This document shows, one piece after another, positions 6,877 to 26,550 of a stretch of DNA of 64,000 bases (within the stretch, counting starts at the first letter, position 1; every line of letters begins with the position of its first letter). Source of the stretch: a virus (lineage: Duplodnaviria > Heunggongvirae > Uroviricota > Caudoviricetes); IMG/VR virus record IMGVR_UViG_3300044765_000092, positions 1 through 64,000 of that record, one strand, 5' to 3'. The translations under genes and the position numbers were made by a program. The notes under the pieces are model-generated. The model did no database searches, was not told the DNA's origin, and saw only the letters and a program-made list of their open reading frames with translations.

Positions 6877-8217
6877 ATGCCGTATTCCGTGCAGAATCTG
6901 ACCCGAAACGTTTTGACATTCGGGACTGCTGTTGTTCAAGCTCAAAGTTCGGCCATAGTTGACGACTCGTTCCTGCCGGAACTGACTCAACTCAGTGCCT
7001 CGGGCCTTATCTCTTACTCTGCCGTCAATGGTGGCGGTGGCACCAGTTCTGTTACTGTGGTTGACGATCTGGTGACCGGTGGTTCGACCAGTGCTCTGAG
7101 TGCTCAACAAGGTGTTGTACTCAACAACTCGATTAGCACGCTAAGCACTCAGGTCAATACGCTGGTACCCAAGTCGTCGATCGTTAACGATCTGGTGACG
7201 GGTGGCACTCAAGTGCCACTCAGTGCGCAACAAGGCGTGGTCCTCAATTCGGCTGTCGCAGGCAAGCTCAATACCAGCTCCGTTGTCAACGATCTTGTGA
7301 CCGGCGGTACTGCGGTTCCACTGAGCGCCCAACAAGGTGTTGTACTCAACGCCGCGCTGGCAAACAAGGCTCCGTTGGCGAGTCCGGCGCTGACAGGTGT
7401 GCCAACGGCCCCGACAGCAACTCTGGGTACGAACACGACTCAGCTGGCAACAATGGCGGCTCTCCAAGCCGCGCTCGCCGCCTCCGGTCGCCTGTTCCAA
7501 GGGTCTGGTGTTCCGTCCAACACGCTTGGTATCGATGGTGACGGTTATGTCCGTATGGACAGCCCTTATGTCGGTTCGTTGTACCTCAAGTCGTCCGGTG
7601 CGTGGAACGTTGCTCAGACCACAACCACTTGGGCTGGTCGTCCATCGGCATCGTCCAACACGGGCGCTGTAATCACCGTTAGTGACTGGAACATCGACTT
7701 CTATTCCGACGGTACGAACTGGATTCCAGTGAACAAGCGTCTGCCGTTTGTCACTTATGCGACAGGTACCTCGTCCCTCACTACTGGTACGAACAGTGGT
7801 ACTCTGGCGTCGACTGCGATCATCTTCACTGATACGATCCCGGCTGGTCTGGTGATTCCTGGGTGCAAGATCGAATTCGAAGGTCTGGCGCAGTACGCTG
7901 GTACTTCTGCGTCGGCTGCGGGTAAGGCGTTTATTGTCACTGACAGTAACGCCACTTGGTTCATTTCGCCTGCCCCAAGCAACACGACCAAGTCGACTGC
8001 TGTGCGGATGACTATGCGGGTCGACAGCACAAACGTAGCAAAGCAGGTTATGATCTTTGCATCGAACTCGTCGGATACCAATGGCGCGACAACGAATGCG
8101 CCTCAATTCCTGACGAATAACTTTGTCAACGCCTGTGCCTTCCAGTGGCGCCTCAACGCCAACACTGACGACAGCTATCAGTTGCTGAGCCGTAGCATCA
8201 CCATCTACTATCCGTAA
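6877..8217 (+). CDS. Tail fibre protein with three tandem repeats
   Basis: 3x V(N/D)DLVTGG...LSAQQGVVLN, then the KAPLASPALTGVPTAPTA..NTTQLAT fibre motif; ggag RBS before ATG 6877. Confidence 0.85.
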   Translation: MPYSVQNLTRNVLTFGTAVVQAQSSAIVDDSFLPELTQLSASGLISYSAVNGGGGTSSVTVVDDLVTGGSTSALSAQQGVVLNNSISTLSTQVNTLVPKSSIVNDLVTGGTQVPLSAQQGVVLNSAVAGKLNTSSVVNDLVTGGTAVPLSAQQGVVLNAALANKAPLASPALTGVPTAPTATLGTNTTQLATMAALQAALAASGRLFQGSGVPSNTLGIDGDGYVRMDSPYVGSLYLKSSGAWNVAQTTTTWAGRPSASSNTGAVITVSDWNIDFYSDGTNWIPVNKRLPFVTYATGTSSLTTGTNSGTLASTAIIFTDTIPAGLVIPGCKIEFEGLAQYAGTSASAAGKAFIVTDSNATWFISPAPSNTTKSTAVRMTMRVDSTNVAKQVMIFASNSSDTNGATTNAPQFLTNNFVNACAFQWRLNANTDDSYQLLSRSITIYYP

Positions 8218-8257
8218 TCAGTAGCCTCGTGGCGCGTGTTAATGGAGTTTGACTCTT

Positions 8258-9880
8258 ATGCCTCTTACTAATCGCTTTCGACAGCGTCAGGTCGAACGCC
8301 TCACGCCAGTAGCTACGAAATACGCCCGAAAGCTGACTGGAGCGTGGGCCGTCAACTACACGGAGGACCCCAACGTCCTCCAGTGGTACGACTTTCTGCA
8401 ATGCAACCCCAGTCAGCTCTATATGTGGGCGGGCACGACTCGCTACAATCAGTTCGCGAGCCTCATCAGTTCCCAAAAGGCACTGAATTCACGAGCTAAA
8501 TGGGGCGCCTATACCATCGCCTACGAGAACGGTGGTCAGTGCAGTTTCATCGATTCGATCTCGCGCTCTGGTTCGAGCGTCACGTTCAACATCGTTGACA
8601 TGACTGCCCAAACGGCCAAGGCCCCGGATTCGAACATCACGAGCACGAGCCAGATCATTGTGATCGGTTTGTCGGGTAGCGCCGCAGTCTACAACGGAAC
8701 GTGGACAGCTACTGCGGTTGGCGCCTCGTCAGTGACTGCCACCGTCACTGGTGCGGCTACCTCAGGTCCGACTGGTGTGTCATCTGCCAATGGTATGGTG
8801 GCAAGCACTGCTACAGTCGCTGGTCATTGGTTCACCACTCTTAAAAACAACGAGTCGTTCTATCTGCACAAGCAGGGGAACAGTGGCCGTCGCACAGCGT
8901 GGAGCACGAGCTACAACGCGATCAACATGAACCTGAGTCGAAACACGACTCCGGATTCGTCGACTGGTTATCGTTGGCCTCAGACGTGTGCGAGCATCTA
9001 CCGGGAAATCTTCGACAACATCGATCTGGACTGGGCGTTTCTCGACAACTACATCGACCCACGTAACGACGTGATCAACGATGTCCAGTTTGGTACTGGT
9101 GCTCGTGGTACTGAAGACTTCTTGATCGATGGCGTTGGTCAGTCAATCACCTCGACTCTGGGCCTTAGCGCCCACCGTCAAGGCTGTGCTGACTACGCTC
9201 AAGCCATTCGCTCGTTTGCCGCCTCGACTGGCAGTGGCAAGTCCAAGTCGCTGGTCTGCATGGGTAACCATGACAGTGCAAACGGTGTGACGCTCACAAA
9301 CGAGATGGCAAATAGCCTGGAGTACGCGTTCATCGAGAACGTGTTTGCCGGCTATGGTGATTCGAACCGTGCATCGATCCTGAGCAGTGCCGCTTACGGT
9401 TTTAGCCACTTCTTCAATCCAGCTGGTGGCAACGGTTCGATCCAGGCATTCGTGCCGCAGCTGATGGCTCCTCGATACGTGTTCTTGGATATCGAACCTA
9501 CCTCGTCTACTCAATACGAGCTGATTCGCTTTGGCATGGGTATGTGCTGGTTGCATGACAATGCAATCCCCATCATCTATCCACAGAGCGGTACTCGGGT
9601 CGCTTATGACGAACAAAAAGTGGGCGTGGGCAACGCGATTGACCCGATCCCAACTGTTCCGTATTCGGGCACTTTGTGGAAGCGCCAATACCAGAACATG
9701 CTGGTGTTGGTCAACGCTGGATCGTCTTCGCAGTCGATCGATCTGACTGGTACTCAATGGAAACGAATCAACGGTACTGGTGATCCTACAACCAATAGTG
9801 GCGGGTCTGCCATCAACGGCTCGTTTGTTGTTCCGGGCTGGTCGGCACGGATGTTGGTCATCAACGATCCGGGCACATAA
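8258..9880 (+). CDS. Putative polysaccharide depolymerase, GHL15-like glycoside hydrolase
   Basis: ESFYLH, DWAFLDN and C-terminal LWKRQYQNMLVLVN resemble hypothetical glycosyl hydrolase family 15; sits among tail genes. Confidence 0.6.
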   Translation: MPLTNRFRQRQVERLTPVATKYARKLTGAWAVNYTEDPNVLQWYDFLQCNPSQLYMWAGTTRYNQFASLISSQKALNSRAKWGAYTIAYENGGQCSFIDSISRSGSSVTFNIVDMTAQTAKAPDSNITSTSQIIVIGLSGSAAVYNGTWTATAVGASSVTATVTGAATSGPTGVSSANGMVASTATVAGHWFTTLKNNESFYLHKQGNSGRRTAWSTSYNAINMNLSRNTTPDSSTGYRWPQTCASIYREIFDNIDLDWAFLDNYIDPRNDVINDVQFGTGARGTEDFLIDGVGQSITSTLGLSAHRQGCADYAQAIRSFAASTGSGKSKSLVCMGNHDSANGVTLTNEMANSLEYAFIENVFAGYGDSNRASILSSAAYGFSHFFNPAGGNGSIQAFVPQLMAPRYVFLDIEPTSSTQYELIRFGMGMCWLHDNAIPIIYPQSGTRVAYDEQKVGVGNAIDPIPTVPYSGTLWKRQYQNMLVLVNAGSSSQSIDLTGTQWKRINGTGDPTTNSGGSAINGSFVVPGWSARMLVINDPGT

Positions 9881-9949: not shown

Positions 9950-12900
9950 ATGTTTCTCGTGACCAACCAGACGTCCAGCGTACTCGCTTTTGGACGGGTC
10001 AACATTCCGCCACAGACAGCTGAGTACGTTGACGATTCGTACTATACCAAACTGGTGACGATGCAGGCCCAGGGCCTCATCACGTTCACGCAGACTAGCA
10101 GTGATAGCCCGCCTCCTCTCCCGGGTTCCGGTGGAGCTGGTACTGGCGACACCGTGACCAATGTATCGTCTGCGGTTGACGGCCAGATTGCTGTCTTCAG
10201 CGGCACGACGGGTAAGGTACTGACTACTGCGTCGGGCACCGGCCCCGTCAAAGTGAGCTCTGGTGTTCTGAGTGTCACTCAGATCAACCTGGCTTCGTCT
10301 TCTGAAGTGACTGGCAATCTTCCAGTCACGAATCTGAATAGTGGCACCAATGCCCTGAACACAACTGTGTGGGCAGGTGACGGCACCTGGAAACAGGTAG
10401 TTCAGAACAATCTGAACACCTCGTCTACCATTGCTCCGTCGGCTGACGCAGTCAATAACGCTATCTCCACGATTAATACATCGTTGGGAACCAAGGCCGT
10501 TGACACTGCGGTAGTCCACAACACAGGCAATGAGTCGATCAGTGGCACAAAGACTTTCACGTCGAGCCCTGTGGTTCCGACCCCGAGCGCCAACGACAAC
10601 AGTACCAAGAGTGCGTCTACTGCGTATGTAGATTCGGCGATTTCTGCCCTGAACTCTGGCCTGTTGAAGATCAAGGGCAACATCGATTGCAGCGCCAGCC
10701 CCAACTATCCGTCGGCTACTCAGGGCGACGCATACGCCGTCTCGGTCACAGGTAAGATCGGTGGCGCTTCTGGTACTGCGGTCGAAGCTGGTAATCTGCT
10801 GCTCTGTACAGCGGCTACAAGCGCGGCCGGTAATCAAGCGACAGTCGGTTCCAACTGGATTATCCTGGAACACAATCTACAGGCTCCGTTGCTGGCAGCC
10901 AATAACCTGAGCGAAGTCAATCCAGCAACCGCTCGTACGAATCTCGGCGCCGGTGACACGAGCTCCAACACCTCGACGTCGGTTGACAGCGAAATTGCGC
11001 TCTTCAGCGGTGCCTCTGGCAAGACGATCAAGCGTGCCACTGGTACCGGCTTTGTCAAAGTCGCGTCCGGTGTGATGAGTACGAGCGCGTCAGTCAATCT
11101 GGCTACGGATGTTACTGGCAATCTACCAGTCGGCAATCTGGCGAGCGGTACTGGTGCGAGCGCCACTACTTTTTGGCGTGGCGACGGAACGTGGGCAACA
11201 CCTGCCGGTTCTGGTGACGTCAGTTCTAATACTTCCACGGCTGTTGACGGTGAAATTGCCCTGTTCAATGGTACGACTGGTAAGTCGATCAAGCGCGCTA
11301 CTGGCTCGGGTCCTGCTCGTCTGACGTCCGGTGTTCTGTCTACTGCGTCAATCAATCTTGCGTCAGCTGACGTGACGGGCAATCTGCCCGTCACCAACTT
11401 GAATAGCGGAACGAGCGCCAGCGCCACTACTTTCTGGCGCGGTGATGGTACATGGGCCACTCCTGCTGGTGGCACTGGAACGGTCACTAACACTGGCGGT
11501 AGTCTGGCTTCGAACTCTCTGGTTCTTGGCGCTGGCACTAACGACACAAAGACGGTTGCTGGTATTACGACTGATGGTGCTTCGAAGATCAATCTTGGTC
11601 AACCAGGAGTGATCACTGGTTCTGTGTCGTTCGCTAACACGACAAGTGGTTCAGTCACCATTGCTCCGCCCAACACCGGAGCGCTGGGCGCCGCGGCCCT
11701 CACACTGCCTATCGCAACCGATACGCTGGTGGGTCGTGCTACGACTGATGTGTTGACCAACAAAACGATCACTGGTGCGTCGAACTCGTTGACTGTTCGT
11801 CTTGCGAATGATGTGACTGGCAACCTCCCGGTCGCCAATCTTAACAACGGCACTGGTGCCTCGAGTTCCACTTTCTGGCGTGGTGATGGTACATGGGCCA
11901 CTCCGCCGACGACAAGCGGCACAGTCACTAACACAGGTGGCAGTCTGACGGCCAATGCTCTGGTCCTCGGCGCTGGCGGTGCTGACACTAAGGTTGCGGC
12001 TGGTATCACAACTGACGGGACGAGCGCGCTTACTCTTGGTGTGCCAAGCACATCGACTGGTAGCGTGGTTATGAACCAGGCGAACAATGCGTTTGCCGTC
12101 ACTCTCCAGCCGAACGTCGGAGCCACAGTCAGCACTACGCTGCTCCTTCCAGTCAACGCGGCTACTGTTCTGGTGGGTCGCACGACGACTGACACCCTGA
12201 CCAACAAGACGATCAACGGTGCGTCTAACACACTGACTGTTCGTCTGGCTAACGACGTGACCGGTAATCTGCCCGTCACTAACCTCAATAGTGGTACCGG
12301 AGCTAGTTCTACCACTTTCTGGCGAGGGGACGGTACTTGGGCGACTCCGGCTGGTGGCGGCAATGTATCAAACGCTGGAACACCTACTAATGGTCAGGCT
12401 GCTGAATGGACATCGGCGACTACGGTTCAAGGTGTTTCGGTCACAGGTACTGGTAACTACGTCAAGGCTACGAGTCCGTCGATTGCGACACCTACACTGA
12501 CCGGCATTTGGACTGCGTCTGGTGCTCAGGTCACGGCTGCGGCCGCGATGGCGGGCACTGTGATCGACGTGACGCAGATGCTGAACAGCAAGAGTGTCGC
12601 TGTAGACACAACGTTCACTTTCAGTGGCACTCCGGCTACCGCCGATACTTGGTTTGGTCTCACATTGACAAACTCGGACACTGTTGATCATACGATCACA
12701 ATCCCGAGTTCGTATTCGATGAGTCGTCAGGCGACGATTACGACCTTTGTGCAGCCGGCTGGCACAACTTATCGCCTTCTGTGGCGATACACTGGCTCTG
12801 TGTACCGTCTGTTCGGCGAACCGGCTCCGGTATTCGACGCACAGGCAACGATTGCTAGTGCTGCGACTACCAATATCGGCTCGACCACGAGTGTCAACAT

Positions 12901-13510
12901 CAGCATTACGGGCACGACTACGATCACTAGCTTTGGCACTGCTACGGCTGGCACTTATCGTCAAGGTTCGTTTGCTGGTTCCCTGACACTGACATACAAC
13001 GCAACGTCGTTGATTCTGCCGGGAGGCGTGACCATCACTACCAAGGCTGGTGACACGTTCGGTGCCATCTCGTTGGGTGCTGGGAACTGGTTAGTTCTGT
13101 GGTATGTTCGTGCTGCTATTGCTGATACTCGTGCGGACCTCCAAGGCACTGGTCTCAACAACGGCGAAGTCGGGTTCCGTGGTATTCCGATCAATAGCCA
13201 GAGTGGCAGCTACTCACTGGTCGCTTCTGACGCTGGTGGTTGCATCTATCATCCGTCCGGAGCAGCGGCTGCTACCTACACGATTCCGGCCAACTCGTCT
13301 GTGGCGTATGCTGTTGGCACAACCATCATGATCGATAACGATCATGGCGCGAGCGGCGCCGTCACAATCGCGATCACGACAGATACGCTTGAACTCGTCG
13401 GATCCGCCGGTTCGACTGGCACTCGTACGTTGGCAATCGGTGGTCGGGCTACGATCCTCAAGGTTACGGCCACGAAGTGGCGTATTAGCGGAAGCGCGGA
13501 GCTTACATGA
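9950..13510 (+). CDS. Long tail fibre protein (1186 aa, modular repeats)
   Basis: G/T/S/A-rich; five VTGNLPVxNLxxGT...WxGDGTW repeats; C-terminal fibre-tip domain. Confidence 0.9.
10307..12349 (+). repeat. Five dispersed ~90-bp coding repeats in the long fibre gene
   Basis: Units start near 10307, 11111, 11372, 11813 and 12257; synonymously diverged. Confidence 0.85.
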
Positions 13511-15387
13511 GTGGTGCTATTCTTGCTGCAATTTCCTCGTTGCTTGGTGTCGTAAGCAATACGAAGAACATTGTCTCCAAGACATGGTCGCTGCAAGCTA
13601 GTTTTGATGGAGTCAAGTACGGTCTGTACCCAAATGGCGACAAGCCTGCTGGGTACCAGACTGCTCCGACTCTGTTGGCAAACGACGTAGCAGACGGCCA
13701 GATTACTGGAGGCATCAACGGCAACGGGGTACCAATCCGATTGTTCGGCTATTCATTTGGTACCCGATCCAATCTTGGTCTCACGACAGGGGCCAAGGTT
13801 TATTTTCGTGACCCGTTGGGTGACAATCTATGGCATGAATGCGCATACTACTGGTATCTGTCAACGAGCAAAGTCTATTCAAAACTACAGATCCAAGAGC
13901 TTTGCATCGAGCCCGGGGCACTCGGCGGCTCGATGGTTAACGGTCGGTCTTTGGATATCAAAGTCACCGTCAATGGTACTGACACCAATATCCTGACTGC
14001 TGCGTTTAAGATTCAGCCCGGGAACTTTTTCTACGTAGACCACCAGAACGGTAGTGACACTACCGGAGCTGTCAACGATAAGACTAAACCATTTCAACAT
14101 CTACAAGTCTACAACACCGGAACAAGCTCTTACACAGGGTTGTGGGCGTCCCTGACTTCGACAGGAGGTGACACAATCCTGGTCAAGGGCACGACCTCCG
14201 ATAACCTCGGTGTAGAAGGCAAGTATTGCCGTTTCTACTCAAAGACTGGAAGCGTTGCCGACGGAACTACTGGAAAGGGATCAATCAAGATCCTCAACTG
14301 GCCTACGACTTCAGGTGCAAGCACTTGGTCGTTTACGGGGCCGGCGGCAGACAATGGCGGGATTCACGGCTCGATTAGCGGTCATTACGGGACTGACGGC
14401 AAATACGTCACCCTCTCTGGCTTTACTGGAGCAGGGAACGCGACCGGGAATAGTGATGCAGCTCCAATCAACGGTCAGTACGGGGCGATTGGTTGGCGAG
14501 TCTTCAACTGCGAGTCCCAATGGCAATCAACTGTCACTGGAACTAATCACGCCCGCGCTGGCGCCATCGCAGGGGAGTGGGAAAGCTCGCTCATCTTTGG
14601 TTGCCATCTTCACGATGTGTGGGGCGACTCCAACCAGGAAAACCACGGCATCTACATCGGCGATGGCGCAAATGTATGCTCGAAGAACGTTGAGATCGCC
14701 TACTGCTACATACACGACATCACTGCTGGCTCCGGCATTCAGTGCAACAACAGTGCGGCATCCGACACCTTCCAAGGCATCAAGACGCACCATTGCTGGA
14801 TCGAGAACGTCGCCAAGTACAGCATCAACGCCAACAACACAGTGCTGAGTTGGGATGTGTGGAATAACATCCTTGTCAACCCAAGTAAGAACATCTTCCG
14901 GGTCGGCACGCCTCAAGCAAGCGCAGTGTTGAATTTCGTACACAACACTTGTGTCCAGTCTAGCACGAACAACTCCTACACTGGTATGACGGCACAAGAA
15001 TCGGCAGGTATCACCAGTGGTACTACCAGTATCAAGCACAACATCTTCTATAAGGCAAACAATACTGGTGGCCTGACCTTCACTTCGTTTGGCTCCGGCG
15101 ACACCGGTGTTGCGATGGCGGAGAATCTGTACTTCGATGTCACTGGTACTGAAACTACAGCCCCGAGTAAGGACACAACTGGGATTTACGGTGATCCTAA
15201 GTTTACTGACTTCGTCAACAAACTGCTGACTTTGCAGACTGGTAGTCCGGCTATAGATGCTTGTGCCTCGGCTGAGGTGATCGCAGTAGCAAGTGATTTC
15301 TATGGTATGGCTCGTCCAGTCACTGGAACAAGCGCGCCTGGAGCTAGTAAGAACGATATCGGTGCTACAGAAGGGGTGGGTGTATAA
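13507..15387 (+). CDS. Tailspike / right-handed beta-helix depolymerase
   Basis: Parallel beta-helix pattern ([20 protein letters not shown]); C-terminal [21 protein letters not shown] motif; ATGA overlap with upstream gene. Confidence 0.8.
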
Positions 15388-16881
15388 ATGGCACACGCTT
15401 ATGTAGGAGGTGCGTCAAACGCTACGTCGTCGAGCGTAACCTCCGTATCAGCAACCTACGCACCGACCGCCGGTAATGGACTGTTAGTCACAGTCTATTA
15501 CCAGCAGAGCTCGAGCCGCGCATTCTCCGATATTCAGAATCAGAGTGGTACTTCGCTTAATCCTGTACTGCTGTACACCGGTGGTCTAGAGGACGCGTCG
15601 AACTACTCGGGTTTCTACGTGGCTTTCTGTCCCAATGTTCCATCAGGCATCACTGCCGTTAAGGGTGTGTTGGGATCTGCTAGCTCAGCAGGTATCGGTA
15701 TCGATGTGCGTGAATACTCGGGCCTAACGACTATTGGTAGTCAGGCAGTCGGTAACGCAGTCCAGAACACGTTCACAACAACAGCCAACGCGATCACCGC
15801 GTCTGCTACGCCAAACGCGCAGCCCGGTCTGATTTTCGCAGTTGCGACCAACGTGTCAGCCGGTGCATCACCACCCTCGGTGGGCACCGGCTTTACGTCG
15901 CGTGGCACTCCGTCTTTTGCTCTTGCATTCGGTACTGTTCAGTTCCGTATCGAAGATGGATCATATTCGTCGCTGTCATCGACTGCGGCGACCATGACCA
16001 ATGCTGGAGCAAGTGGCAACGAGATCCAAATGATCATGGGCTTGATCCCGGACGCAGCTCCGCCTGCGACTCTGTCAAGTCCAGCTCTGGCCTCGTATGC
16101 TGACGTTTCTGCCACTGGTACGGTCACAAGTGACACGGCCGGTGGTACTCTGTACGGTGCTATCACCAACACGAGTGCAACCCCGACGGCTGCCCAAATC
16201 AAGGCTGGTGGTGGCAATGTGGTGTCTCATACGAGCATCACAGCCGCGTCAGGTTCTAACAGCGTCACGATCACCGGGCTGACGGCAAGCACGACCTACT
16301 ATGGTCCGTGGTTTGTTGAGAACAACGGTTCTGACTCCAATATAGTCGGTCTTGCTACTTCGTTCACGACCAATCCACCCTCGCCAGCAATCAGCAGTTT
16401 GAGCAGTAGTTCCCCAACCGAGGGATCGACGCTGACCATAACGCTGACCAACGGTGGTGCGTCTCAGGGTACCGTTACTATTGGTGGAGTGAATCAAACG
16501 GTGACCTCATGGTCGGCAACGAGCATCCAAGTCACAGTTGTGTTGGGGTCCAACAAATATGGATCAGCGCTGAACCTGATCGTGACCTCGTCGTTGGGCT
16601 ATTCGAGCACTCCTTACAGCGTGTCTGGCGGCATACTTCCAGCCTCGGGTTGGTCATACATTAACATGACTACACCAAATGCTACAACAACTGCTCGTCT
16701 TACATCGGTGAGTGTTGACCTCGCGTCAGCTGACCAGATTCATTACGAGAACAAGAGCAATTTGGTGACGGTCGCAGCCGACGGAACAATTGCAGTTGAT
16801 TCGTCAGTCACATCCTGGCAGGCTCGTGCCTGGACCGCAACTTATGGTTGGGGTGCATACTCGACGCAGACTATGTTGTGA
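15388..16881 (+). CDS. Ser/Thr-rich virion adhesin with IPT/TIG (Ig-like) domain
   Basis: PAISSLS..GSTLTIT..QGTVTIGGVNQTVTSWSATSIQVTV. Confidence 0.7.
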   Translation: MAHAYVGGASNATSSSVTSVSATYAPTAGNGLLVTVYYQQSSSRAFSDIQNQSGTSLNPVLLYTGGLEDASNYSGFYVAFCPNVPSGITAVKGVLGSASSAGIGIDVREYSGLTTIGSQAVGNAVQNTFTTTANAITASATPNAQPGLIFAVATNVSAGASPPSVGTGFTSRGTPSFALAFGTVQFRIEDGSYSSLSSTAATMTNAGASGNEIQMIMGLIPDAAPPATLSSPALASYADVSATGTVTSDTAGGTLYGAITNTSATPTAAQIKAGGGNVVSHTSITAASGSNSVTITGLTASTTYYGPWFVENNGSDSNIVGLATSFTTNPPSPAISSLSSSSPTEGSTLTITLTNGGASQGTVTIGGVNQTVTSWSATSIQVTVVLGSNKYGSALNLIVTSSLGYSSTPYSVSGGILPASGWSYINMTTPNATTTARLTSVSVDLASADQIHYENKSNLVTVAADGTIAVDSSVTSWQARAWTATYGWGAYSTQTML

Positions 16882-16936
16882 TCAACGCGCGCGCGACTAA
16901 CGTCAGCATCCATAGAGTGTTACAGCTCTGTTACAG

Positions 16937-16974
16937 AATAGGCGGTGACCGAAAGGCATCGCCTATTTTTATTT
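16937..16974 (+). terminator. Intrinsic terminator ending the tail-fibre cluster
   Basis: aataggcggtg-a-cc-GAAA-gg-catcgcctatt followed by tttattt. Confidence 0.8.
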
Positions 16975-17009
16975 GGGCGCACAACCTCATAGCTGCTCAA
17001 GGACAAACA

Positions 17010-18176
17010 ATGGAACATCCAATTCTGCGCGTACTCTTTATTCTCAAACGACGTCATCCAGGACCTTATGGCCACTGGAACTACAGCCCTGATGGGCAAT
17101 CACTGCCAAGCGGTCTTAGCGTGTCAGCCAATCAGGTGGCAATCGCACTGAGCGAGCTCGGCATCGATAACAAGACGGTCCAAGTGGTTGACAACAACTG
17201 CATCGACCGCGAAGTCACGGCCTACAAGCCCACCCACGTCGTGATCGAGGCGTATTGGGTGGTTCCAGAGAAATTTGATGTGCTGAAGCGGCTGCATCCA
17301 GGTGTGACCTGGATCGTACGCAATCACTCGAAGACTGAGTTCTTGGCCAACGAAGGTATGGCCTACGGGTGGACAATCGAGTATCTGAAGCGCGATCTGT
17401 ATGTAGCGTGTAATTCCGGGACCGCCACTTGCGTCTTCAAAGAACTTGCGCAATCGATGGATCTCCCTCAATCGAGGGTGATCGAGCTATCCAACTACTA
17501 CGATCTAACTGGCGCTGAAGATCCACATGTCAGCCAGTTCAGTGTCTGGTGGCATAAGCTGCACCGGGAACTTGGTACCGAGCGGTCCAGTTTTCCGGCC
17601 GACCTCGAGACTGATGGCCTCCACATTGGTTGCTTTGGCGCCATACGTCCGTTGAAGAACCACATGAACCAGGCGCTGGCTGCCATTCGTGTAGCCGATC
17701 GTCTTGGAGTGGAACTCGCGTTCCACATCAACGGCAATCGTGTGGAGGGTAATGCCGACCCCTTTGTCAAGAACCTGCGCCAGTTGTTTGCCAAACACCC
17801 ACGCCATCACCTGATCGAACACGAATGGGCAGATCACGACAAGTTCCTACAGATCGTTCGGAACATGCATCTTGTGTCGCAGGTATCAGTGTCCGAGACC
17901 TTCAATATTGTGGCCGCTGACGCTGTATATTGTGGAGTCCCAGTCGTTGGTTCGGCCGAGATTCCGTGGTTAGACGATGAGTACGTGGCAGAACCTAACT
18001 GTGTCGCTAACATTGCTGACACAATGGAGTATGTGCTCCAGTATTCGGGCGAGCATGTTATTAACGGCACGATCAAGAGCCGCAAGCCCTACATTCATGC
18101 AGATCAACTCCAGGGTCTGCGCGAGTATGTGGGTGCAGCCAAACGTGAGTGGGCACGCTTTCTACTCGGTCGCTAA
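17010..18176 (+). CDS. Glycosyltransferase, GT-B fold (GT4-like)
   Basis: IGCFGAIRPLKN and SETFNIVAADAVYCGVPVVGS motifs; aagga RBS before ATG 17010. Confidence 0.8.
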   Translation: MEHPILRVLFILKRRHPGPYGHWNYSPDGQSLPSGLSVSANQVAIALSELGIDNKTVQVVDNNCIDREVTAYKPTHVVIEAYWVVPEKFDVLKRLHPGVTWIVRNHSKTEFLANEGMAYGWTIEYLKRDLYVACNSGTATCVFKELAQSMDLPQSRVIELSNYYDLTGAEDPHVSQFSVWWHKLHRELGTERSSFPADLETDGLHIGCFGAIRPLKNHMNQALAAIRVADRLGVELAFHINGNRVEGNADPFVKNLRQLFAKHPRHHLIEHEWADHDKFLQIVRNMHLVSQVSVSETFNIVAADAVYCGVPVVGSAEIPWLDDEYVAEPNCVANIADTMEYVLQYSGEHVINGTIKSRKPYIHADQLQGLREYVGAAKREWARFLLGR

Positions 18177-18181: not shown

Positions 18182-18208
18182 AAACGGGAACCCTAGGGTT
18201 CCCGTTTT
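18182..18208. terminator. Bidirectional terminator between convergent blocks
   Basis: Perfect 26-bp palindrome aaacgggaaccctagggttcccgttt. Confidence 0.85.
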
Positions 18209-18215: not shown

Positions 18216-19031
18216 CTATCGCTTGTACGAGCCCGGTACTGTTTCACCGGAGTAGGTTGTTGTTCCTCCGTCGCCGCCTGTGCCGCCGCCGCCACTGCCG
18301 GTCGACTGATCTGGTGTATATCCAGTCGGGCCGACCATCACCGTTACAGACGGAGAGGCTACCATCGGCGGTTCAGCATAAGGGGCTGGATTCACCCACG
18401 TAACGCCGCGGCCTTGCGTAAACTCACCGTATTCCAAGTGTCGAGCAATTGGATCTTTTCTGGTATTTGTCGTCTGCTCGTTGGTTTGATAGACAATCGT
18501 GCCGCCGACATGGTCTGGCGCGATGACGTTCGGCACCACTTGTTGCTGATACGTGTACATTGGAGTAAACGGGGTCGCCGGTGTCTCTTGGTGTTTGTGT
18601 TTGGCGATCAGGTCGTTTAGGGTCTCACCGTCACGAGGCGTTGGACCTTTCGGTGCATCCCTCTCGGCCCTGGCCTTGCGGATAGCTTCCCGCTTCTCCA
18701 ACACTAGGCCGAGATACGCGATGTAATCCTTGATGGTCTCGTCCAGCGATTCGGTTGACATCGGATCGTCCGATACGTCCAGGATATTCCATCCCAGCTT
18801 TTTCAACTGAGCATCCAGGCGGTCACCTTTGCGGATGATCGTGAAGTAGGCGCCGGTCCCACCACGCTTACACCAGCTGGATCCGTACTCAGCGTCTTTC
18901 TTCTTGCAGGTGGTCACGCACTCGGTCATGAGCTGTGCCATACGCTCGAAGTTCGTATACGGCACATACGACTGCATTTCAGTCGCGTTCTCCGTGTCTG
19001 TACGCTTATCCATCGTTCGCCGATCCGTCAC
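18216..19031 (-). CDS. Nucleotide-modification-associated helical protein (Nmad1/DUF1599-like) with low-complexity tail
   Basis: KKKDAEYGSSW...IIRKGDRL...ESLDETIKDYIAY; start overlaps the stop of the TS-like gene. Confidence 0.7.
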   Translation of the reverse strand: MTDRRTMDKRTDTENATEMQSYVPYTNFERMAQLMTECVTTCKKKDAEYGSSWCKRGGTGAYFTIIRKGDRLDAQLKKLGWNILDVSDDPMSTESLDETIKDYIAYLGLVLEKREAIRKARAERDAPKGPTPRDGETLNDLIAKHKHQETPATPFTPMYTYQQQVVPNVIAPDHVGGTIVYQTNEQTTNTRKDPIARHLEYGEFTQGRGVTWVNPAPYAEPPMVASPSVTVMVGPTGYTPDQSTGSGGGGTGGDGGTTTYSGETVPGSYKR

Positions 19032-20149
19032 TGCTTCTGTCCTTCCTTAGCTTTACGAGCTGCCACCCGACGCAGCAGCCACTGATAGCCATTTACCGTC
19101 CAGTCGGTTGCCGGCCCGAAGTTCGTGTCCAGGAAGTGCGCAGCTTCCTCTGGTCCCTTGTTCTTGTACAGCCAATAGGCCGAGCCCATAGGCCAGACCA
19201 CCTTTTGATAGAACTCAGTACCGAAGTCTTCGGCTTTCAGCCGGTCAAACGATTTGTACGCTTCAAGCAGCAGGATTGTGTCGGCATCGAATGCACCACG
19301 TTGATCTGCTCCGTCAAACAGATACGGTGTAGGATCGTAGTTGAACTTCGGCAAGCCTCTGGCCCATTCATCAGCATATTCCAGAGTAAACGCGTCGCTT
19401 ACGCGGTCCGTCCCATGGGCATAGTCCGACCGAATGAATCGCTTGGTGATGTCAAACTCCAGATACAGATGAAGATTCGAACTCACTTGATTGTAGACTC
19501 CTACGTCTACAGTCTTCCCATTGATCTGGCCGAGAGCACACGCCACGTACTCTTGTAGCATCGAGAAGTGCACGACATTGGCGCCCAACGCACCAAAGAT
19601 GCTATCGTTGCTACGGTTGAACACCGTCATGTCCAGTTCGTAGCTATGCCTCAGCTCTGTCAAGTAGAACGTGCATGCCAGATTGCAAGGCACGTCATAG
19701 GTACCGTTCTGAACAGACTTGGGATCGTGAAGACCATCCCACATTTGGAGCACCACGCGACGGCTTGCAGGGTCACGTGCAAGCTCAGGAATCACCCACT
19801 GGCTCAACTGATCGTGATTGAAATGATTGCGCCACCGATAGCCATACGCTCCGTTGAGTACCTTGCCATCGTCGCTGTAGTTCTTCATGTTGGACGCGTA
19901 GTAGGCAGGCAACTCTACGTCGTTGCGGCCACCGAGCATCCACAGGCTTTCCATCAGGTGGAAGAACGGATTGGCATCCCGTACCGGGCTCACAACCACC
20001 CGATTGCGTGGATTAGTCCACCGCAAAATCACTGGATTGCGGAACCGGAGTACCGGTCCGTTGCGGCTCTCGGATTTGAGGCCGCGGACCAAAATCTCCG
20101 GCAGTAGCAGTTGCTGCATCTTGTCGATGCTATGTGATTCGTATTCCAT
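19028..20149 (-). CDS. Thymidylate synthase superfamily, probable dUMP hydroxymethylase
   Basis: ANPFFHLMESLWML, YGYRWR, SRRVVL, catalytic PCN, RSND...GAN (Asn at the dUMP-specificity position), NLHLY; context next to a 5-hmdU kinase-family gene. Confidence 0.85.
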   Translation of the reverse strand: MEYESHSIDKMQQLLLPEILVRGLKSESRNGPVLRFRNPVILRWTNPRNRVVVSPVRDANPFFHLMESLWMLGGRNDVELPAYYASNMKNYSDDGKVLNGAYGYRWRNHFNHDQLSQWVIPELARDPASRRVVLQMWDGLHDPKSVQNGTYDVPCNLACTFYLTELRHSYELDMTVFNRSNDSIFGALGANVVHFSMLQEYVACALGQINGKTVDVGVYNQVSSNLHLYLEFDITKRFIRSDYAHGTDRVSDAFTLEYADEWARGLPKFNYDPTPYLFDGADQRGAFDADTILLLEAYKSFDRLKAEDFGTEFYQKVVWPMGSAYWLYKNKGPEEAAHFLDTNFGPATDWTVNGYQWLLRRVAARKAKEGQKQ

Positions 20150-20158: not shown

Positions 20159-21391
20159 TTACGACTGGAGTTTATGGAATCTGGTCGCTTCGTGCAACCC
20201 TAGGGCGATTGCCTGATGCATGTCCAAGTATTGGTACGAACCTAGGCGCCCGGAGAACCTGATGTGGGGTACTTCCTGGAGTGCAAGCGTTGTGTACTCT
20301 GAGTACAGTCGTTTGTTATCCAGGTTTGGGACAGGGTACATCGGCACGTCCTTTGGACCGGCCTCTCTTGGCAGTTCTGTTACCACGGCTGTGTGGTATT
20401 TGTTGATCGGTAGCTGACTCCTTGGCAGTGGTTGGAGTTTGGACATCAGCGTGTATCGAGTGGCTCCTGTAAACTCCTTTACATTGCTCAGTATGTTGTA
20501 GGTGGTAGCCACCGCAGTACCTGCCGTCGCTTCACCCCAGATGGTTCGTACCTCGGTCCTGAAGTCGATCGTGCGATAGCCAAGATGCCCAAGTTTGTAA
20601 CCAAAGAACTGATCGATCGGACCTGTGTAGAACGTGGGCAAGCCCCTGGTTTTGCTATCTAGGTCTTCGTACTTGGTTGACGTGCGTACCTCAAGGCGAT
20701 CACCGCATCGATCAATGATTCGCTGCACAAAATCCGTGTATCCCTTGGCCGGAAGAGCCTGATACTTGTCAGTGAAGTAGCGGTCGTCGAACGAATTTCG
20801 GAACGGCACCCGGTTGATCACCTCCGGCATTCCGGTTTCGATCTTGTCGAACGGTAGGCCCCACATCAGCTCAGAATACCTGCGACACACGACTTCCCTG
20901 AGCACTTCAGCCAAAGTCTCGAACGCCACGCATTGAGGATAGTCCAATTGCTTGGCTCTATTGGCTAGGTCACCGAGTCTGATCACGCTATCGGCGTTAA
21001 ACTCAGAATCTAGTGCATGAATCACCGAGTAGTAGAGCTCAGCGTTGAGCAGGGACGTTAGACTCCCTCGGTTCAGCGGCAAGCTAAACGCTTTACCGCT
21101 GTACTCGCCCATCACCCGGTGGTAGTACGGAACCCATTCACAGAATTCGTTGACAAACTTCCACACCATATCACTGTTCGTGTGGAAGATGTGCGGCCCG
21201 TACTTTTGCATCCACACGGATACCGACGTCGCTCCGTCTGTATCGAAATGCTCGACCCCGTCATACACGTTGCCTCCAACGTGATCGCGCTGATCGATCA
21301 TCAACACATTATACCCGTGTTGAATAGCTCTGTGGGCAAAGCACACACCGGTCAAACCGGCCCCCACAACGAGAATTGTCTTATCTACCAA
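20159..21391 (-). CDS. glf: UDP-galactopyranose mutase
   Basis: VVGAGLTG FAD motif, HVGGN, YGPHIFHTN, RYFTDKYQALP, YTGPID, GRLGSYQYLDMHQAI; ORF extends to 21433 but TTG at 21391 has a ggag RBS. Confidence 0.92.
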   Translation of the reverse strand: MVDKTILVVGAGLTGVCFAHRAIQHGYNVLMIDQRDHVGGNVYDGVEHFDTDGATSVSVWMQKYGPHIFHTNSDMVWKFVNEFCEWVPYYHRVMGEYSGKAFSLPLNRGSLTSLLNAELYYSVIHALDSEFNADSVIRLGDLANRAKQLDYPQCVAFETLAEVLREVVCRRYSELMWGLPFDKIETGMPEVINRVPFRNSFDDRYFTDKYQALPAKGYTDFVQRIIDRCGDRLEVRTSTKYEDLDSKTRGLPTFYTGPIDQFFGYKLGHLGYRTIDFRTEVRTIWGEATAGTAVATTYNILSNVKEFTGATRYTLMSKLQPLPRSQLPINKYHTAVVTELPREAGPKDVPMYPVPNLDNKRLYSEYTTLALQEVPHIRFSGRLGSYQYLDMHQAIALGLHEATRFHKLQS

Positions 21392-22004
21392 AGTGGTCTC
21401 CAAAGTATAGGTAGTCCTTGGCATAAAAGGCATTGATCAAGCCTTTCTCCTCGGTGGTCAGATCCTCAGCCCGAAGGGATCCGGCCTTACTACTCTCATT
21501 GTCGTGACCCATTACGATGGCCATCCCCATGTGATTGGCCACCATAGTGACCAGGGCATTAGGATTAGAGGTCACAAAGTCAGCAACCATCTTTCCGTTG
21601 GGCAACACTAGGAAGTTCTTCTGCGGACAGAAGTGGACAAACCGCATGTCTGCCACCGTCAGTGCTGGATACTCAGTAATCAGTTTGAGCAAATCACCAA
21701 CACTCATGTCGTGGATTCTGCGGCTCCTCGTGTAGTTGTAGGCGCTGATAAAGCGGTCCATCGGATTACGCACCACAGCAAACACTAGATGCGTGCGAAT
21801 CCGAGTCTCCAACTCAGGAAACGCATAGAGTTCGTGGGCCTGAATGTGAGCCTTGTCGACCGTCCGTTGGAGCTGCGGCACGAACTTAGGCCCCCAATAC
21901 TGATTGTTCGAGTCGTCGTGCTTCATCAGTGCATTTCGCACGCTTGTTCCGGCAGCCTTGGGTATGTGGATAAACACCCATGACCCTCGATCACTGTACA
22001 TCAT
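21381..22004 (-). CDS. Carbohydrate sulfotransferase (Sulfotransfer_2 / HNK-1ST-like)
   Basis: 5'-PSB motif FIHIPKAAGTS, 3'-PB motif VRNPMDRFISAY, HFCPQ, C-terminal FYAKDYLYF. Confidence 0.88.
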   Translation of the reverse strand: MMYSDRGSWVFIHIPKAAGTSVRNALMKHDDSNNQYWGPKFVPQLQRTVDKAHIQAHELYAFPELETRIRTHLVFAVVRNPMDRFISAYNYTRSRRIHDMSVGDLLKLITEYPALTVADMRFVHFCPQKNFLVLPNGKMVADFVTSNPNALVTMVANHMGMAIVMGHDNESSKAGSLRAEDLTTEEKGLINAFYAKDYLYFGDHFGR

Positions 22005-22008
22005 GATG

Positions 22009-22605
22009 TCAGAGTACCTCGCGTGTGACTGGTGTGTCAGGCCCTAGATCAAGCAGCCGCTTAGACAAAGTCTCTGCAATGGTCTGAAACTGCTCTTCGT
22101 TCTTGTAGTTCTTGACTTCAATGTCGACGTGCGACGCTGGCGCCGTGTACATCTTGGACGTGTCGGCAAATCGAGACTCTTTGGGCGTAATCGTGTTCAT
22201 CCACACCTTGTAGATGATGACCGCGCGTGTCGAGCCAAAGAACGAACCGGCACCAAGACGGAACGCATTGTCCGTCTGTTCAGTGGGGTTGACAAAGTCA
22301 ACGAGTGCAAACCTATTGAGCCCCTCGCCGTTCGTTGGGTGACCAGCTAGATTGAGGTAACCGTACGGAGGACTGACAGCCAAACTTGAGATGGCGCCCA
22401 TGCGGTACGCCTGGACAATCCGGTCTCTGACTGAGAACCCCAGGTCCTTAGAAATCCATCCACGGATCATGTCAGCATTGATACGCACTGAGTAGGGCAG
22501 TATGTCCGCTAGCTTGTCAGCCAGCGTGGTCTTTCCCGACCCCGGCAGCCCTTGGAACAGGACGATCACCCGCTGATCAGGCACCTTGATCTTGATGGCG
22601 CTCAT
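22009..22605 (-). CDS. cysC: Adenylyl-sulfate (APS) kinase
   Basis: GLPGSGKTTLA P-loop; NADMIR..ISKDLGFSVRDR matches the CysC D.D.R...DLGFS..DR signature; VDFVNP. Confidence 0.82.
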   Translation of the reverse strand: MSAIKIKVPDQRVIVLFQGLPGSGKTTLADKLADILPYSVRINADMIRGWISKDLGFSVRDRIVQAYRMGAISSLAVSPPYGYLNLAGHPTNGEGLNRFALVDFVNPTEQTDNAFRLGAGSFFGSTRAVIIYKVWMNTITPKESRFADTSKMYTAPASHVDIEVKNYKNEEQFQTIAETLSKRLLDLGPDTPVTREVL

Positions 22606-23615
22606 TTTGCCCCGCTGTACTTGTTCTTCATGTTAGCACCGCCGTCCTTTTGGCTACGCACCATCTTTGACAGCTCGCACATACAGTTGCTGTAGTTCGA
22701 CATCGAGATCTCTTCGAATCCGGTTCGCATATCGTTGGTCCACCATTTATTTGGTACCTTGGCCTTGACTGCTTCATTTACCAGTTGGCGGAACCTCAGC
22801 ATTTCCTCGTGAATCTGCTTTGGTGATAGCTTGCCGTTCATGCGGCCCGTGCTCATCCAGTTCGTGCCCTTGCGCGTACCTGGACCTGGACTAGTGAACG
22901 TGTTGTAGTCCTTGGCCCGCTTTAGCCACTGATTCATATACGACAGGTCGACCACAACTTGATAGGCTAGGAACGGACCCCATCCGTGGTTCTTGGTCAG
23001 TTCGGCGACCGCGCCACCCATCGTGCCTCCGTTCCTAGCCCTGCACGCTGCTTGAAACGGTTGTCGATTGTGCCATAGCTTATCGAAGTTGAAGAACGTG
23101 ATGGCATACGGCTTTTTGAACTCAGTGGGCGGCAGTTCACCCTTTGGAGTGACCGAGTTGACGATATACGCCCCGGTCACCACCTTTTCTTTCCGCTGCG
23201 CGCGGCCCCTAAGCACACCGAAGAACTTCTTGGCGTCCCACTTCTTGGTGGGCCACGCACCCTCGTCCATCAGCTCCTGAAGCGTATCCGGCCAGTTGAT
23301 CACGCGGGTAATTGCCAGCATGAACGGCAGGTCCGGATGGTCTTGATATCTGTCCATCACATTGGACCGTACCCACTTGCTGACCCGATCTAGTTCGCGG
23401 TACACGTTGGTGAACGAGAAATTCTGCAGGATTGGGTCGTCGGTCCAAGGCTTGGGCTGCTTGAGCACTTCCTTCTTCAAGTAGATCTTATGGCGCTCGA
23501 CCACAAATTTAGCGCACGCGTCGACGCGTTCAGCCTCGTCCGGAATGAAGTAAGGGAACATGCCCTGGTTTTGGAACAGTTCCCCTTGATTCTTGTCGCT
23601 CTTTGTCTTTGTCAC
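22602..23615 (-). CDS. 5-hmdU DNA kinase family (aGPT-Pplase1, helical glycosylase-like fold)
   Basis: ERHKIYLKK...PWTDDPILQNFSFTNVYRELDRVS, TGAYIV, GWGPFLAYQVVVDL, PGPGTRKG, NCMCELSK. Confidence 0.85.
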   Translation of the reverse strand: MTKTKSDKNQGELFQNQGMFPYFIPDEAERVDACAKFVVERHKIYLKKEVLKQPKPWTDDPILQNFSFTNVYRELDRVSKWVRSNVMDRYQDHPDLPFMLAITRVINWPDTLQELMDEGAWPTKKWDAKKFFGVLRGRAQRKEKVVTGAYIVNSVTPKGELPPTEFKKPYAITFFNFDKLWHNRQPFQAACRARNGGTMGGAVAELTKNHGWGPFLAYQVVVDLSYMNQWLKRAKDYNTFTSPGPGTRKGTNWMSTGRMNGKLSPKQIHEEMLRFRQLVNEAVKAKVPNKWWTNDMRTGFEEISMSNYSNCMCELSKMVRSQKDGGANMKNKYSGAK

Positions 23616-24041: not shown

Positions 24042-24240
24042 CGTCCCCTTCGTCTTCCGTGTAATCTGACTCCTCAAAGTCAGAGTCAGTCATTACTGAG
24101 AATACCGACACGTCTACAGCTGAAGACACGGCCACCACACTAGCAGCTGCCGACTCGTTAGCAATAGCTTCTTCTACGGCCTTGCGTGCAATTTCACGTT
24201 CCGTGATGCTGTCACACCTGACAATTACGATGGTCTTCAT
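24022..24240 (-). CDS. Small protein with acidic C-terminus
   Basis: 72 aa; start overlaps the TAGT-like stop (TAATG); D/E-rich tail. Confidence 0.55.
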   Translation of the reverse strand: MKTIVIVRCDSITEREIARKAVEEAIANESAAASVVAVSSAVDVSVFSVMTDSDFEESDYTEDEGDDDGDDE

Positions 24241-25202
24241 TACGGCTCCTGTTTCGCGCGTTTCCAGTTGCGCTTGAACGTTGCGATGATCTCGTCCCGT
24301 GGCATCTCGTCCGGGTACTGAAAGATCTTAGGTGGTTTGATCAACCCGTGCTCTTCACAGACTGACCTCACGTAGTCTTTGCTGGCTTGAACGTGCTGTG
24401 GCTTTACACCCTTGACCGCACGCTGGAACCACTTCTGAATCGTCATTCCACCGCCGCGGTTGCCGTTCTCTTTTGCACCAGTCACGATGCCTGGGAACAT
24501 GCGCGCCATCTTGAGCGCGCTGTCTAGCTTCACAAAATCATCACGATAGGTGGCTGTCCCTGTGACCGACAATTCCTTGACCGTTGAATGGTTGTACACC
24601 AGACCGTAGTAACAGACAGACGACCGTGTTGCCTGTAGCACTTGCAAAGGTATTGCGAGGTCAGTGAACATAAATGTTTTGTTGAACCACAGTTGGTCAC
24701 GCTTAACGAGCTTCTGTATCGTGCCCCTGCAAAAACCCGTGACAACAAAACCTACCGTGTTGTGCTTGATCAACGACTTGCGCGCGTGTTGCTCGGCCAT
24801 GAACTTCGATGCCAGGCTGACGCACTTGTGATCGTCGTACAGTGTAGGAAGCACGTCCAGAAATTCGTGGGCAAATGCTTTAGGGTCAGCCTTTGCGGTG
24901 TTGTATCGCCCGGCCCTTCGATCCCACACATACATGCCAACATCGTCGTCGAGAACAAAGTAGTTGGACTCCATGTTCTGTGCCAACCACTGCCGCTTCT
25001 TCGGCACACAATCTATGTGGGTGGGCCACACCTCGATCGACTTTACGGTCGAGGCCCACTCACGCTTGTACTCTTTGTACTGCGATGGCACTACCCACAA
25101 CTCCACCTGCTGCTGAACCTTTGGAGGCAGGTTCTGCAACGTGATTTGTAGCCGTGGTCTGCCGTACGACATGATTATGAATCGACAGCCGCTACTGGTC
25201 AT
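24240..25202 (-). CDS. GT-A glycosyltransferase, TAGT (TET-associated / base-J glucosyltransferase-like) family
   Basis: IIMSYGRP..ITL, LWVVPSQYKEY, KKRQWL, FVLDDD (DxD); likely ATG 25202. Confidence 0.75.
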   Translation of the reverse strand: MTSSGCRFIIMSYGRPRLQITLQNLPPKVQQQVELWVVPSQYKEYKREWASTVKSIEVWPTHIDCVPKKRQWLAQNMESNYFVLDDDVGMYVWDRRAGRYNTAKADPKAFAHEFLDVLPTLYDDHKCVSLASKFMAEQHARKSLIKHNTVGFVVTGFCRGTIQKLVKRDQLWFNKTFMFTDLAIPLQVLQATRSSVCYYGLVYNHSTVKELSVTGTATYRDDFVKLDSALKMARMFPGIVTGAKENGNRGGGMTIQKWFQRAVKGVKPQHVQASKDYVRSVCEEHGLIKPPKIFQYPDEMPRDEIIATFKRNWKRAKQEP

Positions 25203-26514
25203 CCTTGCTTCGCCTTTTCTGTCGGTCTTCTTGTTTCTTGAGTTGACGATCAATCTTTGTCAAGAAACGTTCGGCGTTGGCTTGGATCTTCTTGTTGAGC
25301 TTCCCCGTCTCGAGCTTCGGATACACACCGGCAGGCTTACCCTGAGCCAACTTGATGTAGTCAAGGCTGCTCTTACGATAGTCGAAGAACTTGAGCAGAA
25401 TCTTCCGGCCACGATCGATGATGGCTTGCGCATCGTCCTCGTGCAGATGCGATACGTGGTCGATCAGCTCGGCCAGTTCACGTGGCTTGCAGTCGTGCGC
25501 GATCTCGAAGTGAGTCTTCCCTGCCTTGAACATCTGCAGTTGGAACCCTTCTTCGATCATGTTCTCACGCACACATATAGGAACGCAACCGTTGTTATAG
25601 CCTTCGATGATGCTGCGGTTGAAGTGACAGCCCAAGGACATGAACTTCTTTGACCAGGACGTGTCGACCATCACACGTGACCTGCGATACAACTTCTGCA
25701 GATCAGCACTCGTCAGCAGACCCCTGTAGTCCATGCCCGCCTTCTCTGCCTTGGCCCAGATGCCTTTATACTTGTCCTTGCACTTGTCAGGACTCGTCAT
25801 GTAGCGACGTTCGATTCCGTCACCCGCCATGATCATGTGCGTGTTCTTGATATACGGCACGGCTCGCACTGTCATGTCCATGTGCTTCCATGCTTTCCAC
25901 ACGTGAGCGCTCACAGCCTGAGGCTTGCGTTCTGACCACGACCTCATCTTTGTCCAGTCGTACACCGGATGCGGAGCACCGACAAACGCCCTAGGGGCTG
26001 GGAACCACGACAAGGCAGCGTAGCCTGCTTGATTCGTGCAACTGATTCCCTTGACCTTGTCAGCCACGTGGATCAGATGAGGATACAGATCACGGAAGTT
26101 GGCATCGTGCGCACTAATGATCTGTGGAACATCGACGTCGTACAGGCGTTTCCACCATCCGTGCGTGTCGACAGCTCCAGGCTTTGCCGGGTTTGGTCCC
26201 GGGATCTCGTGAATGATCAGATCGTACTTGGACGCTCGCTTTTGCCACTTGAGGATGCGTCGCTTCGACCCATAGCTTACGATCGGTATGCCAAAGTATC
26301 CGGCAAGAGTGTGACATTGTGCGCCTGGGAACACGGAATCGTAAGCGCCATCCCTCTTGGTCTTGCCTCGCATCTTCGGATCGAAGTCAGCATTGACCAG
26401 ATAGCAGATGTCTACTTCGTGGCCAGCTTCTGTTAGCCCACGGGCCTTGAATTCGAGGTCCGCGACTATACCTCCCCAGTCTTGGATGTCGAATACGGTG
26501 AACAGAATTTTCAT
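25192..26514 (-). CDS. GT-B glycosyltransferase, first gene of the modification operon
   Basis: MKIL...DWGGI N-terminal loop, WKHMD, MAGDGIE, FNRSIIEGYNNGCVPI donor-binding motif. Confidence 0.8.
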   Translation of the reverse strand: MKILFTVFDIQDWGGIVADLEFKARGLTEAGHEVDICYLVNADFDPKMRGKTKRDGAYDSVFPGAQCHTLAGYFGIPIVSYGSKRRILKWQKRASKYDLIIHEIPGPNPAKPGAVDTHGWWKRLYDVDVPQIISAHDANFRDLYPHLIHVADKVKGISCTNQAGYAALSWFPAPRAFVGAPHPVYDWTKMRSWSERKPQAVSAHVWKAWKHMDMTVRAVPYIKNTHMIMAGDGIERRYMTSPDKCKDKYKGIWAKAEKAGMDYRGLLTSADLQKLYRRSRVMVDTSWSKKFMSLGCHFNRSIIEGYNNGCVPICVRENMIEEGFQLQMFKAGKTHFEIAHDCKPRELAELIDHVSHLHEDDAQAIIDRGRKILLKFFDYRKSSLDYIKLAQGKPAGVYPKLETGKLNKKIQANAERFLTKIDRQLKKQEDRQKRRSKDDQ

Positions 26515-26542: not shown

Positions 26543-26550
26543 CATTTACA
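26543..26550 (-). promoter_or_regulatory. TGTAAATG promoter-like motif heading the modification operon
   Basis: Same octamer precedes five other gene starts (see findings). Confidence 0.6.

Follow-up and report, generated by a model that had tools for sequence, protein, structure and literature searches.

An operon carried by a virus record of 238,018 bp (99% complete by CheckV; genome G000), whose first 64,000 nt form the window analysed here, appears on balance to direct the assembly of a sulfated sugar, likely including galactofuranose, on 5hmU in the phage DNA, to judge from its predicted proteins. The nearest cultured relative by the PF18723 gene of the operon is the Ralstonia jumbo phage RSL1 (49% identity). 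The gene set recurs in approximately 20 related viruses, among them a cultured one, which suggests that these phages probably coat their DNA with a sulfated sugar. The operon lies on the minus strand and starts with the GT-B gene at 26514; its genes overlap or abut in the order GT-B, TAGT, aGPT-Pplase1, cysC, sulfotransferase (ST), glf, dUMP hydroxymethylase (TS-like) and an ORF ending at 18216. The features concerned are as follows.

26543..26550, minus strand: TGTAAATG octamer, candidate phage promoter element at the operon head, 29 nt 5' of the GT-B gene
25192..26514, minus strand: GT-B glycosyltransferase, 440 aa, basic (pI 9.5); weak Pfam glycosyltransferase match, model pLDDT 87
24240..25253 (likely start near 25202), minus strand: TAGT-family GT-A glycosyltransferase, basic (pI 9.6); PF20691, E 8e-10
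22602..23615, minus strand: aGPT-Pplase1 (Pfam HMUDK_hel), helical marker protein of the 5hmU pathway; PF18723, E 4.5e-44
22009..22605, minus strand: short P-loop kinase of the CysC type, predicted to convert APS to PAPS (APS kinase); PF01583, above cut-off
21381..22004, minus strand: PAPS-dependent sulfotransferase, Sulfotransfer_2 family, 206-207 aa; PF03567, E 2e-12; phrog_3347
20159..21391, minus strand: UDP-galactopyranose mutase (Glf) homologue, divergent; PF03275, E 2e-41
19028..20149, minus strand: TS-fold enzyme with dUMP hydroxymethylase signature; phrog_5131, E 1e-95
18216..19031, minus strand: conserved ORF, phrog_1485 (function not assigned), found 3' of the TS-like gene in most relatives by synteny
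18182..18207, minus strand: strong hairpin terminator at the operon end, 11-bp stem, top-ranked site of the scan
16848..18176, plus strand: separate GT4-like glycosyltransferase, acidic (pI 6.2), converging on the operon; weak Pfam GT4 matches

The cysC, ST and glf genes are three intact minus-strand ORFs, flanked on one side by the PF18723 gene at 23615-22602 and on the other by the TS-like gene at 20149-19028. The PF18723 gene and cysC share a 4-nt ATGA overlap (22602-22605), and gaps of 4 nt and 9 nt separate cysC from the ST gene and glf from the TS-like gene. With TTG 21391 (a GGAG just 5' of it) taken as the glf start, the ST and glf genes have 11 nt in common, and with the first ATG 53 nt. 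A sequence-only reading of this DNA had described the trio as tightly nested between a 5-hmdU kinase gene and the TS-like gene; the position, the overlap and the close spacing stand, but the PF18723 neighbour is not a 5-hmdU kinase. The TGTAAATG octamer, whose promoter function is putative, occurs six times in the window against 1.56 copies expected, a number reached in 1 of 100 shuffles, and the copies (26543, 31206, 31254, 37662, 42071 and 53572) lie near gene starts. The ORF at the other end of the operon (18216..19031) is possibly a dNTP pyrophosphatase, although this is a guess.

The case for a 5hmU base comes from the TS-like protein. Its catalytic residue is Cys155, the position of ThyA L143 is taken by an Asp (Asp152), as in MilA, that of D169 by Asp182 and the uracil-specific one of N177 by Asn191. 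These four residues constitute the dUMP hydroxymethylase signature, and the protein is predicted from them to be a dUMP hydroxymethylase. The gene is the sole TS of the whole genome, in which no ThyX was found. In the relative L015 the TS-like gene (~10973-13033) is interrupted at its catalytic Cys motif by an intein that contains a homing endonuclease. The match of the second core protein to PF18723 spans residues 30-322 of 337, the RSL1 homologue is ORF231 (49%), and Cys313-Glu314 is invariant. Assignment of this gene as a 5-hmdU kinase was rejected, as the product is without a P-loop or kinase domain and its PF18723 homologues carry the label aGPT-Pplase1. Those 5-hmdU DNA kinases that have been characterised possess a P-loop (PMC8989533). 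Kinase and aGPT-Pplase1 are fused in SP10 (PMC5889632 Table 3), and this fusion is probably the source of the Pfam name HMUDK_hel. Neither the P-loop 5-hmdU DNA kinase (PF18748) nor the clade-2 AADT (PF18724) gave a match in the 99%-complete genome, in searches in which no positive control matched either.

Two genes would supply the sulfate. The CysC-like kinase retains the P-loop, the DxDxxR motif and the LGFS...DR APS-binding region, and its best PDB matches are APS kinases in every case. It falls below the NCBIfam equivalog cut-offs (TIGR00455, 33 bits vs 138.7), and with its shortened lid it is not a full-length equivalog with a complete lid. Because its orthologues adjoin CysD/CysN in four relatives and it has a sulfotransferase gene as a neighbour, it is predicted to work as an APS kinase. 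A role as substitute 5-hmdU DNA kinase was considered and rejected, since the protein matches APS kinases and not PF18748 and accompanies CysD/CysN. The absence of ATP sulfurylase claimed for the window extends to the whole 238-kb, 99%-complete genome, where no CysD-type domain (PF01507) was found, and APS would thus come from the host. In three relatives an FAD/NAD-binding oxidoreductase (NAD_binding_9) adjoins the in-cluster cysC (e.g. L005:11513-12793; L133 ~12431-13729). The ST has both PAPS-binding motifs intact, the 5'-PSB (HxPKxAGTS) and the 3'-PB (RxP..R..S), with H13, P15, K16, G19, R79 and P81 invariant and R84 and S87 near-invariant. Its model (pLDDT 91) finds sulfotransferases as fold matches, the nearest being heparan-sulfate 3-O-sulfotransferases with weak E-values. 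The protein is without the ~50-aa C-terminal extension present in its clade homologues. The clade sulfotransferases are not basic, with pI values mostly of 6-7.8 against 8.6 for that of the window, which counts against DNA as the acceptor.

The sugar donor and its transferases can be assigned in a similar manner. Glf retains the GLF domain, the FAD motif and the conserved substrate Arg/Trp/Tyr motifs and matches solved UGMs at E 6e-56, but scores 255.8 bits against TIGR00031, below the 303.75 cut-off, and its highest identity to any relative is 37%. It is predicted to supply UDP-Galf or a related furanose donor, though its substrate may be another NDP-sugar. In the T4-like Erwinia phage FBB1 and Aeromonas phages, glf lies directly 3' of motA (L002:7007-8071; L003:6995-8059) and is followed by a ~355-aa hypothetical gene, distant from any annotated base-modification cluster. 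The GT-B model has a GT4-type fold, with T4 alpha-glucosyltransferase among the top matches but not separable from other GT4s. Among its IMG/VR homologues (near-copies included) 75 of 79 lie next to base-modification genes, 50 adjoining a TS-like gene and 25 a TGT/DpdA-like gene. The GT-B is most likely the enzyme that attaches the first sugar to the 5hmU of the DNA, and the TAGT, which matches phrog_842 beta-glucosyl-HMC-alpha-glucosyltransferase (E 3e-18), is likely to be the second sugar transferase. A predicted precursor enzyme for a hydroxylated pyrimidine (TS-like), a TAGT and a GT-B are found in one operon, a combination characteristic of phage DNA base glycosylation systems. The same GT-B family is found beside phrog_24024 (weakly TGT-like) at 25 loci in T4-like phages (L204-L246, e.g. 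L212:8568-11350), with no TS-like gene nearby and a short cysC in 2 of the 25. A TGT/DpdA-like profile matched nothing in G000 or G006, or in the piece available of G008.

The linkage of these genes was followed in 22 distinct RSL1-like clusters with aGPT-Pplase1 (aGPT1) and TS genes and sufficient flank; querying viral contigs with an aGPT1 alignment was productive and a single-protein query found nothing. ST is present in 19 of the 22, each time together with one or more TAGT or GT-B genes, and nearly always adjoins one of these and not GT4. A cysC is found in 18 clusters, and four also have CysD and a short CysN domain; no downstream sulfur-assimilation genes were seen in the loci with added CysD/CysN. 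All seven clusters with glf (the window phage counted) have GT-B, and no TAGT-only cluster has glf. Two arrangements can be described: one, seen in seven clusters, combines GT-B, TAGT, glf and ST, usually in the order glf-ST-GT-B-TAGT-aGPT1-TS, and the other, of the RSL1 type, has multiple TAGTs with a sugar kinase-like gene, a nucleotidyltransferase and ST. Two clusters (L016, L120) consist of aGPT1 and TS with no glycosyltransferase, and both are without ST and cysC; the complete genome to which L016 and L019 belong has no ST, cysC, TAGT or GT-B. No ST, cysC or glf was found near aGPT1 at ~60 more distant loci. The proposal that these are nucleotide-modification genes and not genes of sulfur or cell-wall metabolism therefore gains from the linkage in 19 of the 22 clusters, with DNA as a predicted acceptor.

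The trio had also been read as a single inserted unit, and this part of the proposal is not supported. All three genes belong to the regular set of the clade's clusters, in other orders, and nine relatives have cysC between aGPT1 and TS whereas none has glf there, so that the movable piece here is ST plus glf; only this pair is unusual between the core genes. GC3 gives no sign of an insert (0.66 for cysC, 0.61 for ST and 0.62 for glf; the genome averages 0.62, and the flanks are no different). Codon fit is low for ST (9th percentile) and glf (12th percentile), neither being outlying. The best trees put neither the ST nor the glf of the window within the clade's own groups, but a single clade is not rejected by AU tests (2000 replicates; p 0.07 for ST, 0.41 for glf), and a foreign origin is not established. 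The nesting represents a rearrangement or a re-acquisition inside a clade-wide system, composition and trees being compatible with either. The idea of swappable tailoring is borne out in another form, in that the sugar-donor slot varies between glf, a sugar kinase with a nucleotidyltransferase, and SqdB with GalE.

The last of these is found in L006, the nearest relative by GT-B (75%) and cysC (44%), with the order GT-B-TAGT-SqdB-GalE-aGPT1-cysC-TS and no ST within 10 kb. Its homologue of UDP-sulfoquinovose synthase (SqdB, 7785-8951) has a match to SQD1 (E 5e-75) but does not reach the NCBIfam equivalog cut-off. The arrangement SqdB-GT-B-aGPT1-TS was seen again in two unrelated contigs (SqdB at ~8700-9900 in L171 and ~8800-9900 in L173), and all three are candidates for sulfoquinovosyl-5hmU DNA. 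The presence of SqdB in a slot elsewhere filled by glf and ST suggests that a sugar carrying sulfur is selected for.

Every reaction in the following scheme, and the acceptor, is predicted from the observed gene identities, intact motifs, operon structure and recurrent linkage. The TS-like enzyme, by its active-site residues, would make hmdUMP, which would replace dTMP in replication, and Glf would provide a furanose donor, probably UDP-galactofuranose. GT-B would then move a sugar onto the 5-hydroxymethyl oxygen in DNA and TAGT would add a second, this order being a presumed one. CysC would turn host-made APS into PAPS, with which the ST would O-sulfate a sugar hydroxyl. The resulting anionic glycan may block restriction enzymes and alter the mark presented to enzymes recognising glucosylated bases. 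A wider proposal, which we advance more tentatively, is that RSL1-like jumbo phages have 5hmU DNA with sulfur-bearing anionic sugars reached by two convergent routes, an O-sulfated furanose-containing glycan in the window phage and RSL1 and sulfoquinovose in L006, L171 and L173.

The main challenge to a DNA acceptor comes from G006 (IMGVR_UViG_3300029993_000005), an RSL1-like genome of 230 kb (97% complete) that keeps an intact glf and a clade ST at the same locus (L125:8698-10894). It has ThyX and DNA methyltransferases, and no TS, aGPT1, TAGT, GT-B, cysC or TET was found in it, TET having been sought as a route to 5hmU. It also retains a GT-D/GT4 pair, the GT4 being homologous to that at 16848-18176, which is a candidate alternative partner for glf and the ST. 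Since glf and ST occur here with no 5hmU gene, the two may serve a non-DNA glycan, on a virion protein or the host surface, built by GT4 and, in some relatives, GT-D. Their position in the operon would then reflect shared timing, with GT-B and TAGT glycosylating 5hmU independently. We regard this as unlikely, although it is in keeping with the presence of GT4 in all testable glf-positive genomes (G000, G002, G006, G010) and with the position of the window GT4, which adjoins the operon and comes after tail-fibre-like genes. Against it, the complete genomes G003 and G004 have ST and cysC in the 5hmU cluster and no GT4 or GT-D, the window phage genome has GT4 but no GT-D, and the ST, as described above, touches TAGT or GT-B. 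The glf and ST of G006 may be either remnants left after loss of the core or genes with a DNA-independent use. Homologues of the window GT4 occur in RSL1, G002, G006 and G010, in each of which a GT4 and GT-D gene pair lies 5' of the DNA polymerase (ORF258-259 in RSL1; a further locus is L254:16662-18517).

The same caution applies outside the clade. Distant phage STs and short CysC homologues are usually unlinked to base-modification genes, and phage SqdB homologues beyond the clade are mostly unlinked to TS, so the linkage argument is valid for the RSL1-like clade only. The prediction that such cassettes travel with nucleotide-modification genes accordingly holds inside this clade and not for the distant homologues or for G006. 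The partial genome G008 (23% complete) has ThyX, a clade ST and, located separately, cysC. Its cysC cluster (L280:7180-17330) comprises FolE, radical SAM, a 505-aa protein, QueC, a PRTase-like protein, a 274-aa protein whose RTGS motif resembles that of sulfotransferases, cysC, QueD and GT2, and possibly directs a sulfated deazaguanine-type modification; no transglycosylase was identified in the cluster. Palindrome avoidance gave no interpretable split of ST-positive from ST-negative phages among seven genomes. In the window phage genome T-containing 6-mer palindromes are still avoided (mean O/E 0.72), which counts against the preferred reading. GC-only 6-mer palindromes are barely avoided there (O/E 0.89 vs 0.34-0.72 in relatives), which may reflect the restriction set of the host.

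It is also conceivable, but improbable, that the ST acts directly on the 5-hydroxymethyl oxygen, the sulfate being a final mark or a leaving group for aGPT1 in place of the 5-HMUDK phosphate. 5-HMUDK was not found here or in four ST-positive relatives, and the invariant Cys-Glu of aGPT1 is reminiscent of the catalytic pair of the clade-2 enzymes (PMC8989533). However, aGPT1 occurs without ST in L016, L120 and the ~60 more distant loci and so does not depend on ST, ST is never in a cluster without a glycosyltransferase, its family and nearest folds act on carbohydrates, and replacement of ST by SqdB fits a sulfo-sugar and not a leaving group. We likewise give little credence to glycosyl-5hmU DNA that is unsulfated, with cysC and ST as passengers or as auxiliary genes for sulfur and the CysC-like protein perhaps another small-molecule kinase, for although short CysC-like kinases stand alone in Salvo, DLP_6 and RsoM2USA and the lid and NCBIfam scores fall short here, ST and cysC are retained in the cluster through many rearrangements, CysD/CysN are added in loci that show no downstream sulfur-assimilation genes, and the PAPS motifs of the ST are intact.

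The preferred reading, a sulfated sugar on 5hmU DNA, has partial parallels in several known systems. RSL1 (NC_010811) has an APS kinase, ST, TAGT-type glycosyltransferases, aGPT-Pplase1 and TS-like genes in one cluster (ORF229-238), with ORF232 as the ST gene and ORF238 as cysC, but has three TAGTs with sugar kinase/nucleotidyltransferase-like genes, no GT-B, no glf and another gene order. Its GenBank record already names the kinase and the sulfotransferase, and no chemical analysis of RSL1 DNA was found in the literature searched. A phage UDP-Gal mutase belongs to the DNA galactosylation cluster of the Pootjesviridae; the galactosyl-5-hydroxycytosine cluster of Rhizobium phage RL38JI shares with the present one a TS-fold base synthase, DNA glycosyltransferases and UDP-galactopyranose mutase, but is cytosine-based, with a D169N enzyme and no sulfation genes reported (PMC13326640). 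The window enzyme retains D169 and N177, which points to 5hmU rather than a cytosine base. The 5-HMUDK/AADT hypermodification of M6, ViI and phiW-14 likewise involves dUMP hydroxymethylase, aGPT-Pplase1 and swappable tailoring genes (PMC8989533), whereas neither its P-loop DNA kinase nor its clade-2 transferase was found here, and the tailoring genes here encode sugar and sulfate enzymes. The T4 glucosyl-hmC and TET/5mYOX-linked systems have in common with this operon a T4 alpha-glucosyltransferase-like GT-B and a TAGT/phrog_842 GT-A (bioRxiv 10.1101/2023.12.21.572611), but here the base is predicted to be 5hmU and there is no TET, and sulfation is absent from that paper (0 matches to 'sulf'). 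No sulfated base or sulfated DNA-linked sugar was found in the literature searched, the 2013 Iyer paper lying outside that scope. The operon is a genuine conserved feature and a probable form of phage DNA glycosylation, whose predicted sulfation step is probably undescribed.

If this is correct, it would represent new chemistry for phage DNA modification, with a sulfotransferase whose acceptor is linked to DNA, and would provide an enzyme for labelling glycosylated or hydroxymethylated DNA with sulfate. The question is testable on RSL1, a cultured phage in which these sulfation genes lie in the same cluster. It would also follow that phage cysC, cysD, cysN and sqdB genes, counted as auxiliary metabolic genes of sulfur metabolism, can be DNA-protection genes.
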